From Pseudomonadota bacterium (lineage in GTDB: Bacteria; UBA10199; 2-02-FULL-44-16; JAAZCA01): DNA of 23,312 nt. The stretch lies in NCBI GenBank assembly GCA_043798915.1, contig JAZDOG010000065.1:1-23312 (forward strand), given 5' to 3'. A program made the position numbers. Numbering within the stretch: position 1 is the stretch's first letter; every line of letters begins with the position of its first letter. Positions 21,001 through 23,312 of the stretch are shown in pieces.

Positions 21001-23312
21001 AGCTTTTCTTTGCCATATATCCCTCCGGTTGCGCGCTATTTAAACGCCGATGCCGGCAAACTCAAGGTGTATTTGTAACTATTCAGGTGCCTGTGCCTCT
21101 TTTCCCTCTCCCTTGAGGGGAGAGGGTCGGGGTGAGGGTGGCAATGGCAACCGGGTGAAAAAATCGCAGGGTCACCCTCCCTCCGACTCCCTCCCATCAA
21201 GGGAGGGAGGGTTTTGGAGAAAATTCAAGTGTCGGATTATGGGGGTTAAAAGAAACATCTTGCCCGCTGCCCGATGTGGCATTATAACCCGGCTTATGAC
21301 GCTTGATCTCACAAGCCTTGAAAAGGCGGCGGGATCGCTGGATGCGGCTGTGGCAGTCGCGAGCGACGGGTCGTTCATGTCGCGGCTCACCGCAGAGCAG
21401 ACCGACACGGTGCGGGCCGGCGTCATCCAGAACTTTGAATTCACCTATGAGCTCTGCTGGAAGTTCATACAGCGCTGGCTCAAGGAACACCAGCACCTGG
21501 AGGATGCCGCGCTTCCCCGCACTCGGAAGGACCTTTTCCGGCTGGCCGCAAAGCATGGCCTCATCGACAGCCCTGAACGCTGGTTCGACTACGGCGACGC
21601 GAGAAACATCACCGCCCACACCTACGATCACCAGAAGGCGCAGATAGTCTACGATGCCGCCATCAAATTCGCGAAGGACGCGCGGGCGCTTCTCAAACGC
21701 CTCGGGGCCTTGAACGAATGATCGATCTCACTCCCGACGAGCTCGCTGAAGTAAAGCGCATCCTCGCCGAACATGCGCAGGGCATGGAAGTCTGGGCCTT
21801 CGGCTCGCGAGTGGACGGGAGTTCAAGAAAGAACTCGGATCTGGACCTTGCGATCGTGACGCCCGCCAAAGTGGACTGGCGCCTCATTGAACGCATCAAG
21901 GACGCATTCTCCTCATCAAACCTGCCATTCATGGTGGATGTCGTGGAACTCGCCTCGCTGCCTGAGGGCGTTGCCGCTACAGCAAGAAAAAGGCATGAGG
22001 TGATTCAGGAAGCTGGATCATAAAAAACCCCACCCCTCCCGCTCATCCGCCAAAAGCGGATTACGAGGGCTGGGTGGGGCCATGCGATCTTCGGTTCGCC
22101 GCATTTCCAGCGACAAATCAGGGCGATCGATCTGGACTCCTCCGGGCGCTCTCCCGGATTCCGTGAAATCCGGGACTCCGGCCCAAAGCTCTTGACTCCG
22201 CAAAGGAGTGCTGGGGCGGGACAACACAACGAAACCCGATATTGTTGTTGCGGTTATCGGGATTGTCGTTGTTGCGATTCGCGGCCCGCAGGTTGTGCGA
22301 GGCGTTGTTATCGTTGTTGTTCCAGGAACCGCCGCGAACTACCCCTGTGATCGATTGCCCTCACTGCTTTTCAAAGATCGTTTCCGCCAGCAGGTTGTTT
22401 CTCAACCGCGCTGTGTCCGCGTGCTCCGCATGGGCTGCCTCTTTTCTCCCTCCCTTGAGGGGAGGGAGTCAGAGGGAGGGTGATCCCCGCATTCATCAAG
22501 AATTATCTTTAAAACTCCTGCGGTGTTCTGCAAAACATCCGTATTCCAAAACCGCAGGACTTTATATCCCTCCTCTGTGAGCCATTCATCCCTGTCTGTA
22601 TCTTTCAGGGTTTGATCGGCATGCTGGCCGCCGTCGCATTCAATGACGACACGTTTTTCAAGACAGGCAAAGTCTACGATATATTTTCCTATCGGAACCT
22701 GTCTGCGGAACTTGAATCCTGCCAACTGCCGCAGTTTAAGGTGCCGCCACAGAAACTTTTCGGTATCGGTCGCGTTGTTTCGCAAATCCTTTGCGTTGGA
22801 GACGAGTGTTTTCAAAGGTCACCCCCACCCTGACCCTCCCCCCTCAAAGGGGGAGGGAAAAGAGGTGTATCTCTCAGAACGCGGAAATTTTGCGACCTGC
22901 GGGATGAGGTACAGGAGGAAGTCATACGTCTTCGTTACGATTTGAATCTCTGTGGCCATAGCGCGGACGAGCGCTCAAACCCGAGCGCTCATCCGAGTGT
23001 AAGAAACCACAGGGTAAAAGGCTACACTATTTTTTTGAGTCCTGGGGCGGGACAACACAACGGAACCCGACATTGACGAAGCGACCATCGGGATCGACGT
23101 CGTCGCGATACGCGGCCCGCAGACGGCGCGAGGCACCGTTGACGTAGCTGTACCAGGAACCGCCGCGAACCACCCCTGTGATCGATTGCCCTCACTGCTT
23201 TTCAAAACCACATCAGCAAACAAATTTTTCCGGTATGGACACCTCTAAAAACTCCTGTTTGTCATTGCGAGCGACCAACGGGAGCGCGGCAATCCCTTGG
23301 AACCAGAGAGAT

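Follow-up and report, generated by a model that had tools for sequence, protein, structure and literature searches.

Our comparisons support the view that a gene for a DUF559 protein, a predicted Vsr-like nuclease, and the inverted repeat units standing on both sides of it form one conserved module across phyla. The window analyzed here, a stretch of 23,312 nucleotides from a Pseudomonadota bacterium (contig JAZDOG010000065.1 of assembly GCA_043798915.1; its genome is referred to as G000), carries one such module, and judging from its sequence the flanking unit is the published BoxC/PIT/TMECO intrastrand-triplex motif. BoxC/PIT/TM motifs, which date in the literature from the 1990s, are present in hundreds of genomes and associated with genome instability, and to our knowledge they have no known origin, mover or function; we also know of no role assigned to the very common domain DUF559. 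Once linked, each of the two acquires a function that can be tested in Escherichia coli K-12 (with its ycjD gene and ~23-26 BoxC copies), and a widespread "orphan" repeat may gain a partner enzyme. The link appears to be unpublished within the open-access text searched.

The ORF at 22402-22815 (Table 1) matches the PF04480 profile at 4.3e-42 and 142.9 bits (cut-off 20.6) over aa 4-109, which reproduces the E-value of the survey's finding. Its product is 51% identical to YcjD of E. coli and shows a sequence match to PDB 3HRL (5e-27 over aa 14-106), and it is therefore predicted to have the fold of this solved family member. D45, E56, D58, G59, H62, D69, R72, and R85 are invariant in 24 DUF559 sequences, and five of them (D45, E56, D58, H62, and D69) presumably have catalytic roles, which we assign by analogy with Vsr. 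Vsr, DUF559, PDB 3HRL, and PDB 3R3P are placed in the same structural clan in PMC3424549. We predict nuclease activity for DUF559. Neither an intron, an intein, nor a methyltransferase partner was seen at the gene, and no sigma-70-like promoter was found within the DUF559 element. Two inverted arms bracket the ORF, as had been reported, and measure 47 nt (z = 12 vs shuffles); however, the gene does not lie exactly between them, as the ORF translates through the entire downstream unit (with the tail ..DHPPSDSLPSREGEKRQP..), so that its last ~28 codons are encoded by this unit and the outer flank of the unit.

Table 1. Features of the DUF559 element, the repeat units, and the retroelement remnants in the window.
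Feature	Position	Strand	Remarks
Gene-less B doublet, contig start	19-117	.	Identical 117 nt open contigs C42, C77, and C99
Gene-less A doublet	8538-8652	.	Orthologous intergenic site empty in G001, G010, and G003
Single A unit	11023-11060	+	
Gene-less A doublet	21100-21209	.	Upstream of HepT-like gene
DGR template repeat (TR), AAC-rich	22206-22375	-	25 differences from VR fall at TR adenines
~50-nt segment outside downstream unit	22386-22437	-	Conserved in C74; ~40 nt of it in C80
DUF559 (Vsr-like PD-(D/E)XK) ORF	22402-22815	-	TTG start, 137 aa; domain 22489-22806
Downstream unit, inverted	22438-22485	+	Model R1, 41 bits
Upstream unit (relative to DUF559 gene)	22818-22865	-	Model R1, 44.8 bits
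First ~32 codons of putative Avd-like gene, interrupted by element	22866-22959	-	ORF; homologous flank in G003 locus L006
DGR variable repeat (VR)	23037-23206	-	3' end of FGE-sulfatase-fold ORF; PF03781 6.6e-5, just below cut-off

Read on the minus strand, the upstream unit consists of a C-rich stem, the loop TTTGAG, a G-rich stem, TCA, and the mirrored segment GGGTGGGGG, and terminates in GGTGACC 3 nt ahead of the TTG start. The downstream unit is CTCCCTCCC / TTGAG / GGGAGGGAG / TCA / GAGGGAGGG, ending in GGTGATC, and each of the two contains a C/G hairpin of 9-10 bp. When the third segment was compared with the G-stem, a mirror was better than a direct repeat in 101 of 196 flanks (worse in 19, tied in 76), and the mirrored third segment was present in 178 of the 188 perfect C-rich hairpins of G000. 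The T of the C-stem, the A of the G-stem, and the A/T of the third segment change together. With stems of 9-10 nt, a second loop of 3 nt, and a mirrored third block, the units of G000 fit the criteria for BoxC/TMECO, and a triplex fold is predicted for them from this three-block pattern. Many units have four G-runs, yet we do not prefer a G-quadruplex reading, since units with two G-runs (loci L016 and L026) keep the mirror and a triplex both fits better and is published. The two arms show a tendency to asymmetry, with T upstream and A downstream at mirrored positions (9 loci vs 0, and 35 symmetric or mixed).

The published criteria for the motif are three blocks forming C-G-G/T-A-A(T) triads with stems of 6-15 nt and loops of 1-6 nt, and 23 motifs are listed for E. 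coli K-12, including 5 inverted pairs of two types (Holder et al., 2015, PMC4666352; earlier descriptions of BoxC/PIT by Bergler 1992 and Hoyne 2000 are cited therein). By CD and NMR, according to the same paper, the E. coli motif adopts an intrastrand triplex of the purine motif, and it is linked with arrested polymerases in vitro and with genome instability in its vicinity (PMC4666352). Our units share with BoxC/PIT/TMECO the C-rich stem, the G-rich stem, and the mirrored G-rich third segment, and further, as far as the published descriptions go, the intergenic multi-copy occurrence, often as inverted pairs of two types, the strain-variable presence, and the collapse to a plain stem-loop. 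The second loop of the published motif is described as of the TTA or CCG type, and BoxC pairs as a combination of type A with type B, where the doublets of G000 combine A1 with A2 or B1 with B2. The difference lies in the gene: the literature gives no associated gene in its descriptions of these elements, and Holder et al. report finding neither a transposase or integrase nearby nor a link to mobile elements (PMC4666352), whereas here DUF559 lies inside unit pairs in many phyla.

A search of E. coli K-12 with model R1, derived from the flanks of DUF559 genes, gave 26 units, among them the fabI-proximal copy between ycjD and fabI. At the 3' end of ycjD, itself a DUF559 gene, lies a decayed inverted unit, followed ~170 nt further downstream by a full BoxC; the outer flank of the decayed unit is the same as that in the BoxC pairs of K-12. 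Of 5426 complete E. coli genomes, 2048 (38%) lack ycjD.

Among 41 relatives, inverted arms with z > 4 were found at 21 of 25 full-length DUF559 loci (84%); at another three, z was 3.4-3.8 and units could be recognized by eye. Four DUF559-like matches that are partial or long had no arms (z < 0). A wide scan, for which a 9-sequence alignment was used as the query (a 24-sequence alignment had no usable conserved stretch), gave arms with z > 4 at 63 of 78 DUF559 loci (81%) from Nitrospinota, Desulfobacterota, Planctomycetota, Chloroflexota, Proteobacteria, Acidobacteriota, Elusimicrobiota, and others, compared with 6 of 197 shifted control intervals (3%). Clear inverted arms were absent at 15 of these 78 loci and at 1 of the 25 in the relatives. 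Model R1 placed inward units on both sides of 15 of the 25 relatives' loci and of 0 of the 4 negative controls. The unit sequences are quite different across phyla, with the same pairing of gene and unit. Unit orientation around DUF559 is not fixed: the units face outward at locus L012, on one Synechocystis plasmid, and on one Deinococcus plasmid, and are direct repeats in N. gonorrhoeae and at locus L003.

The earlier count of PF04480 in 21 of 41 genomes was reproduced exactly. Full-length copies number 0-3 per genome, and 1-3 where the gene is present; G012, whose sole DUF559 match is weak, is counted among the 21 genomes without the gene. The median number of units was 27 in the 20 genomes with DUF559 vs 8 in the 21 without it (Mann-Whitney p = 1.3e-4, uncorrected for kinship), and the eight genomes with zero units all lack DUF559. 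Of the 21 genomes that lack a full-length gene, 13 still carry units (2-38 per genome). MAGs often lose repeat-flanked genes. Protein identity reaches 65% for proteins from other phyla and is 40-68% within the same family; as cross-phylum identities are as high as same-family ones, the module may spread horizontally rather than by strictly vertical descent. That each DUF559 lineage has its own cognate unit type, a point raised in the survey, is expected from physical linkage alone and is therefore not counted as evidence here, and the B-type gene of G001, which had been described as intact, contains an in-frame TAA.

Iterated nhmmer searches detected 202 units in G000, of which 67 belong to type A (loop TTGA) and 135 to type B (loop TTTGTAA), together with 78 tight inward doublets (20 AA and 58 BB); these numbers replace the earlier ones (60 A and 62 B units, 17 doublets, and 84 B copies). 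Inward-facing pairs make up 81 of the 89 pairs of neighboring units. All of the 25 commonest 16-mers of the genome fall in B units, at 35-67 copies each. The unit family is indeed the commonest repeat of the genome, as had been claimed, although the gene itself is nested in A-type units and the commonest type is B. The doublets pair two sub-types (A1 with A2, B1 with B2), measure 75-120 nt when gene-less, and share their two-arm architecture with the DUF559 element. Up to a distance of 1 kb, the wider inward unit pairs of G000 are confined to the copies of DUF559 and to one artefact of the assembly, a B-B pair of 146 nt on C60, which was discarded as a palindromic contig start. No B-type DUF559 gene was found in G000 despite its 135 B units. 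The sequence AAGGAGG is part of the B2 units, and an ORF start is found no more than 40 nt away from 30 of 58 of them, vs 33% at random positions; we regard this enrichment as modest and did not adopt a ribosome-binding role for them.

On comparative evidence, the units and doublets appear to be mobile, judging from filled sites set against empty or solo-hairpin sites, a deletion intermediate, and sub-families. G001 has a DUF559 element where G010 has a solo hairpin at the orthologous site, the doublet at 8538-8652 is missing at the orthologous sites of three relatives (G001, G010, and G003), and the same neighborhood in G001 and G005 is occupied by two different DUF559 lineages. The copy on C74 has lost 132 nt internally, retains both units and, as its sequence indicates, is an in-situ internal-deletion intermediate in a decay series. 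B-doublet sub-families, with inner segments in common at unrelated loci, have been amplified without target-site duplication: none was detected, in agreement with the survey, as 53 B doublets gave 2.04 nt vs a null of 1.92 ± 0.17. The proposal that doublets are internal-deletion derivatives of DUF559 elements thus gains from the common two-arm architecture, the C74 intermediate, and the presence or absence at orthologous sites, but is at odds with the B units that lack a B-type gene in G000. We did not take the inner segments of doublets as DUF559 3' ends, since only 8-10 nt resemble the gene end at locus L017, nor their retained ATG/CAT as a gene remnant, since the inverted repeat itself accounts for it. 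The palindromic centre is split by the gene (GGTGACC..GATCACC; GGTAGATC..GATCTACC) and unbroken in the shortest doublets.

We propose a two-part module made up of DUF559 and the BoxC/PIT/TM units, in which DUF559 would act on the units and the doublets would be non-autonomous and served in trans; this reading could, in our judgment, equally well prove right or wrong. The cis part would be the unit, that is, a C-rich/G-rich hairpin, a turn of ~3 nt, and a G-rich segment mirroring the G-rich stem. In the putative "master" form, two inverted units of different sub-type surround a DUF559 gene of ~110 aa whose ORF extends into the downstream unit, and the upstream unit, which ends within a few bases of the start codon, probably provides the ribosome-binding G-run; in the common form, the gene is absent and the doublet of 75-120 nt remains. 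DUF559 would nick or cut DNA as a Vsr-like, Mg-dependent enzyme, with the folded unit or the palindromic junction of two inward units (GGTGACC / GGTAGATCTACC) as its candidate substrate. Its cut may lead to copying or excision of unit pairs via host replication and repair, and the doublets may rely on DUF559 in trans as non-autonomous derivatives. PD-(D/E)XK nucleases form no covalent intermediate, and such an enzyme therefore cannot paste DNA by itself.

Among known systems, the REPIN-RAYT system is similar in its short hairpin repeats, which occur mostly as inverted doublets with the doublet as the amplifying unit, and in its small nuclease gene, which is present in one to few copies per genome and flanked by the same inverted repeats. 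The analogy, which the survey had drawn, fails on enzyme class, as DUF559 (PF04480) is a Vsr-like PD-(D/E)XK nuclease and not an HUH Y1 transposase; moreover, the units here lack a GTAG/CGTC tag and possess a third segment that is predicted to form a triplex, and the cross-phylum protein similarity suggests horizontal rather than strictly vertical descent. A link of the units to RAYT genes was also rejected within G000, where none of the three PF01797 (Y1-transposase) genes has a unit within 3 kb. Terminal inverted repeats common to long and short forms, many gene-less copies, and sub-families are reminiscent of MITEs and their autonomous transposons, in contrast to which we find neither a target-site duplication nor a transposase of the DDE or serine/tyrosine type, and the arms of the DUF559 element are themselves predicted triplex motifs. 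Vsr and the EDxHD/Vsr-like homing endonucleases (I-Bth0305I) have acidic and histidine catalytic residues in common with DUF559; whereas those enzymes are located in introns or inteins or act in the repair of T:G mismatches, the ~110-aa DUF559 protein here is free-standing and repeat-framed. As a wider and more tentative idea, which we would sooner expect to fail than to hold, DUF559 proteins (including YcjD and 3HRL of N. gonorrhoeae) may be the missing partner enzymes of BoxC/PIT/TM, namely triplex-recognizing nucleases that drive copying, excision, and local instability, and may represent a second, mechanistically distinct class of REPIN-RAYT-like replicators across most bacterial phyla. 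If functional, the link would add a nuclease class and a DNA structure (the triplex) to the few ways in which small bacterial repeats persist, and would account for part of the "GEG/PSP" junk peptides that end many annotated proteins.

DUF559 might instead be a free-standing homing endonuclease whose site is the doublet junction or the solo hairpin and which is copied in via homology of the unit arms, the doublets being targets that spread otherwise. This is rather unlikely in our opinion, even though the clan of Vsr, DUF559, and I-Bth0305I is described as containing proven homing enzymes (PMC3424549; PMC3384342), and even though the split palindromic centre, the absent target-site duplication, the solo hairpin of G010 at the site of the full G001 element, and the two lineages in the same neighborhood of G001 and G005 are all consistent with it. 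At ~45 nt, the arms are short for copying by recombination, and the gene stays at 1-3 copies while dozens of "empty" doublets persist uncut. Sub-families with common inner remnants at unrelated loci indicate that the doublets amplify on their own, C74 is decay from a filled copy, and the model would leave the arrival of doublets at new sites unexplained.

We consider it distinctly improbable that DUF559 is a domesticated caretaker, in the sense of a structure-specific nuclease with a repair role useful to the host, which came in with one unit pair or was captured by it and which limits the damage from replication-stalling triplex units (selfish or structural DNA) without spreading them. Such an enzyme has no need for base-pair-precise bracketing by units in many phyla, its gene is often lost with the units remaining, is absent from the 38% of E. 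coli genomes mentioned above and is a pseudogene in G001, and the similarity of the proteins across phyla is a sign that the module has spread horizontally; the reported polymerase arrest and genome instability (PMC4666352), the description of Vsr and Caulobacter VsrA (DUF559) as repair-type enzymes (PMC12907096), the low gene copy number, and the conserved catalytic-type residues would nevertheless agree with it. That the units are mere expression signals (an upstream RBS and a downstream terminator or stabilizer) or common intergenic repeats landing by chance, with no tie between nuclease and repeat, is very hard to believe, since the G-run directly ahead of the start codon, the AAGGAGG of the B2 units near ORF starts, and the abundance of this commonest intergenic repeat are outweighed by arms at 81% and 84% of DUF559 loci vs 3% of shifted intervals, by the lack of any other wider inward pair in G000 up to 1 kb (bar one artefact), by the recurrence of the pairing across phyla with quite different unit sequences, and by the published tests, in which no promoter or terminator activity of these elements is reported (PMC4666352).

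The element of the window lies in the remains of a diversity-generating retroelement (DGR), recognized from a VR/TR pair with 25 A-to-N differences. No reverse transcriptase (PF00078) was matched in G000, which is 97% complete. From its sequence pattern, we take the ORF at 22866-22959 to be a putative Avd-like gene; the PF05635 profile had no match there, its only hit being an unrelated copy on C66. It appears that the DUF559 element replaced most of this DGR accessory gene, and that the DGR is now also without its reverse transcriptase. The DUF559 copies on C73 and C74 are both located in this broken DGR, with outer flanks that are ~100% identical, and the copy on C80 has ~40 nt beyond the unit in common with the C73/C74 flank. 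The segment at 22386-22437 recurs in C74, and ~40 nt of it also in C80; the duplication in G000 therefore extends beyond the unit-to-unit span. Inverted A units on both sides had been reported for three of three DUF559 places in the genome, of which two could be verified; the copy on C80 is cut by the contig start and may also be intact. Judging from these flanks, the DUF559 copies of G000 derive from one ancestral insertion context and are not independent.

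The DUF559 gene of the window, which is the complete contig C73 (23,312 nt) of the source genome G000 (2.34 Mb in 105 contigs, 57.7% G+C), is enclosed by two inverted hairpin units, and the arms around it reach z = 12 against shuffles. Residues 4–109 of the ORF correspond to Pfam DUF559 (4.3e-42), and the product matches the solved Neisseria protein 3HRL (5e-27) and shares 51% identity with E. coli YcjD; the catalytic-type residues D45, E56, D58, H62, and D69 are conserved in DUF559 proteins. Each unit contains a C/G hairpin of 9–10 bp. The packing is tight: the end of the upstream unit, GGGGGTGACC, lies three bases 5′ of the TTG start, a position occupied by ATG in relatives, and the ORF meets no stop before the downstream unit but runs on across it to give the protein tail DHPPSDSLPSREGEK. 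This read-through is also seen in relatives' DUF559 ORFs and, in shortened form, in YcjD. No sigma-70-type promoter was found within the DUF559 element.

Features of the DUF559 element and of the adjoining retroelement repeats (contig positions)
Feature	Position	Strand or orientation	Remarks
DUF559 ORF	22402-22815	-	137 aa, TTG start
Two units of ~47 nt	22438-22485 and 22818-22865	inverted	on either side of the DUF559 gene
DGR template repeat	22206-22375		AAC-rich; paired with the variable repeat
DGR variable repeat	23037-23206		closes an FGE-sulfatase-fold ORF

The units consist of the hairpin, a ~3-nt turn (e.g., TTA, TCA, or CCG), and a G-rich third segment, which mirrors the G-rich stem, each A being retained or switched to T. 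Mirror repetition fitted better than direct repetition in 101 of 196 flanks, worse in 19, and equally in 76, and the mirrored third segment accompanied 178 of the 188 perfect C-rich hairpins of G000. Among 118 aligned units, the T positions of the C-stem, the A positions of the G-stem, and the A/T positions of the third segment move jointly. Judging from sequence, this pattern probably marks an intrastrand triplex of the purine motif, which has already been published. In that work, 23 such BoxC/PIT/"TMECO" motifs are described in E. coli K-12, including five inverted pairs that always join a TTA-loop type to a CCG-loop type, and the motif is known from more than 260 genomes (Holder et al., 2015; PMC4666352). 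According to the same authors, CD and NMR demonstrated triplex formation, the presence of a site varies with the strain, pairs at times collapse to plain stem-loops, and no transposase or integrase remnants were ever found near the motifs (PMC4666352). A K-12 scan with R1, a covariance model derived from 118 units of DUF559 flanks, returned 26 sites, including four inward pairs; because R1 recovers the K-12 BoxC sites, the family identity of our units rests on a test and not on recall.

BoxC was reportedly described originally beside envM (fabI), and fabI adjoins ycjD, the DUF559 gene of K-12. The final codons of ycjD enter an inverted unit at its inner end, GGTCACCCTCTCCCTGA; past an internal loss of the C-stem, the unit continues into the outer flank that K-12 BoxC pairs also have (..GGGG-AC(T/A)GACCGAG). 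Within the next ~170 nt lie a second DUF559 3′-end fragment and a full BoxC unit (35 bits). Of 5426 complete E. coli genomes, 3378 contain ycjD DNA.

PF04480 in 21 of 41 related genomes, as the survey had counted, was reproduced exactly, and its observation of a DUF559 gene between inverted units was confirmed and widened. When the 250 nt upstream of each gene were aligned to the reverse complement of the 250 nt downstream, z exceeded 4 in 21 of the 25 full-length loci of relatives; three others, in which units can be made out by eye, scored 3.4–3.8, and L021 had no arms. Four partial or long DUF559-like matches gave z below 0. A scan that used a 9-sequence alignment and took a single genome for each species yielded 595 relatives, the best 80 of which span many phyla; of these, 78 had enough flank, with z > 4 in 63 and z > 6 in 60, and control intervals shifted 850 nt inside the same loci exceeded 4 in 6 of 197 cases. 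R1 found the gene flanked on each side by an inward unit in 15 of the 25 loci of relatives and in none of four negative controls. Inward, with the third segment adjoining the gene, is the usual orientation; outward-facing exceptions are L012, a Synechocystis plasmid, and a Deinococcus plasmid, and direct repeats bearing units occur in N. gonorrhoeae and at L003. At L003 the repeat is a 104-nt pair of units set back to back, and direct copies of it enclose the gene, the arrangement that a tandem or circle-junction form would give. Upstream units are sometimes triplicated in tandem with a period of ~51 nt (among L017, L011, L018, and L003), and in Legionella anisa (L091) the inverted repeats around DUF559 are 147 nt long (z = 87) and do not belong to the G/C triplex type. 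Where arms differ at mirrored A positions (loci L001–L111), T stands upstream and A downstream in 9 loci and the reverse in 0, which hints that one particular strand is active.

In passages of five papers (PMC3424549, PMC9403480, PMC12907096, PMC3384342, PMC1189080), DUF559 is grouped with Vsr and EDxHD homing enzymes, and those passages make no mention of flanking repeats. None of the DUF559 literature among the matches listed concerns flanking repeats by title or abstract opening, and no open-access text joining Vsr-like, inverted repeats, and mobile was found. Repeat and domain were both known before; a partnership of the two appears to be absent from the open-access text searched.

Iterated nhmmer detected 202 units in G000, comprising 67 of type A (loop TTGA/TTGAT) and 135 of type B (loop TTTGTAA), the source of all 25 commonest 16-mers; these counts of units, like those of genes, are approximate here and in other drafts because contigs break at the unit repeats. 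The survey's picture of a gene nested in a repeat thus holds, while its counts differ from ours and the gene lies within the rarer A type, not the commonest one. The first 117 nt of contigs C42, C73, C77, and C99 are an identical B doublet. Neighbouring units face inward in 81 of 89 pairs, and 78 pairs are tight doublets, 20 AA (gaps <50 nt) and 58 BB (gaps <40 nt), each combining two different sub-types (A1+A2 or B1+B2). Only three inward pairs (C73, C74, and C60) have a wider spacing, of at most 1 kb, and that on C60 was rejected as an element, being an assembly palindrome. The spacing of 343 nt around the C73 gene and 211 nt around the C74 copy opens a decay series that continues to 0–45 nt and the solo hairpin.

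The outer ends of the B doublets are sharply defined, and the DNA flanking them is unrelated from one to the next. An outer ~25-nt inverted repeat, GTAACTATTCAG.. / ..CTGAATAGTTAC, encloses a subset of the A doublets (window 8513–8537/8653–8690 and 10 others in G000), and a few other A doublets have a different left flank, CATAATCCGACACTTGAATTT, in common; the repeats thus have a composite or nested build. The B2 unit (e.g., in the B doublet at window 19–117) includes AAGGAGG. Going outward, 30 of the 58 B2 sides meet the start of an ORF of at least 80 aa within 40 nt, in most cases within 12 nt; the corresponding figures are 20 of 58 for B1 sides and 33% for random positions. Host genes may also use the B2 unit as a ribosome-binding site. 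In a HepT-like/MNT nucleotidyltransferase toxin-antitoxin pair (window 21050–22023; PF08780, 8.4e-36; PF18765, 4e-12), the first ORF has a long extension at its N terminus that is simply an A doublet translated in frame.

Signs of movement come from comparison of related genomes. A B-type element of 447 nt in G001, with an in-frame TAA within its gene, lies 12–15 nt upstream of a host start codon; the orthologous site in G010, of the same genus, has only the solo hairpin TCCCTCCCCTTACAAAGGGGAGGGA, and G005 and G003 have unrelated DNA there. The A doublet at window 8538–8652 is absent from the orthologous intergenic spacer in G001, G010, and G003. Doublets or solo hairpins would be the targets of DUF559 under a homing model, which we consider unlikely. 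B-doublet sub-families share an identical 0–25-nt inner segment at unrelated loci, indicating that doublets multiply as units and did not each decay from their own gene copy. No target-site duplication was detected at 53 B doublets (mean end repeat 2.04 nt vs. 1.92 ± 0.17 for the null); their left flanks are T-rich, and the right flank begins with A in 51 of 53. Identity to the window protein is no lower across phyla than within its own family (up to 65% in other phyla, 40–68% in the family). In one syntenic neighbourhood (G001 C15:58698–61752 vs. G005 C44; L007, L017), G001 has an A-like DUF559 element and G005 a B-type element in the opposite orientation; G000 has no unit there.

Counted with R1 among at most 150 scored candidates per genome, the median was 27 units in the 20 genomes with full-length DUF559 and 8 in the 21 without, including the weak-match G012 (Mann-Whitney p = 1.3e-4, kinship ignored). 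All 8 zero-unit genomes lack full-length DUF559, and 13 gene-less genomes still have 2–38 units. That DUF559 is a domesticated caretaker handling triplex-induced damage seems to us rather less probable than homing, and a solely regulatory or chance adjacency of nuclease and repeat is very improbable.

To our knowledge, a PD-(D/E)XK enzyme alone cannot join DNA, and a classical cut-and-paste or RAYT-type reaction is therefore unlikely. The Y1 transposase genes of G000 have no units nearby, and the REPIN/RAYT literature found concerns HUH enzymes throughout, judging by titles and abstract openings. The window module is not a RAYT system; what stands of the survey's interpretation is a real, conserved, mobile-looking module. 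Beyond the module, its architecture, its decay series, doublet amplification, and the conserved catalytic-type residues, which are observed, DUF559 may cut at the folded unit or at the centre of the palindrome that two inward units form, after which the host's replication and repair would copy or remove the unit pair. The survey's interpretation, with its putative enzyme-repeat function, is partly supported.

DUF559 occurs at three places in G000 by tblastn (C73, C74, and C80). DNA outside the units is nearly identical between C73 and C74; the C74 gene has lost 132 nt, and the rest is ~90% identical to C73 by eye and 81% as protein. C74 is an in-situ internal-deletion form with both units kept. 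The C80 copy is cut off at the contig start and has ~40 nt past the downstream unit in common with C73. These copies are not independent, and their shared context is a diversity-generating retroelement (DGR), whose template and variable repeats differ at 25 positions, at template adenines. The ORF directly upstream of the element (22866–22959) presumably begins like the Avd accessory protein, and its remainder is replaced by the DUF559 element; no reverse transcriptase was found in the G000 genome. The window DGR is broken, with its accessory gene cut off by the element. A paralogous copy of this broken DGR lies at the start of contig C74. In G003, the element is placed after a homologous Avd-like start and adjoins what we take to be a 5′-truncated reverse transcriptase. 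A second small palindromic repeat, unrelated to the units (..GTCATTGCGAGCG..CGGCAATCCC-like), is present at window 23258–23295 and at G005 C7:16272–16371 (L119), where it fills the intergenic site of G001's DUF559 element.
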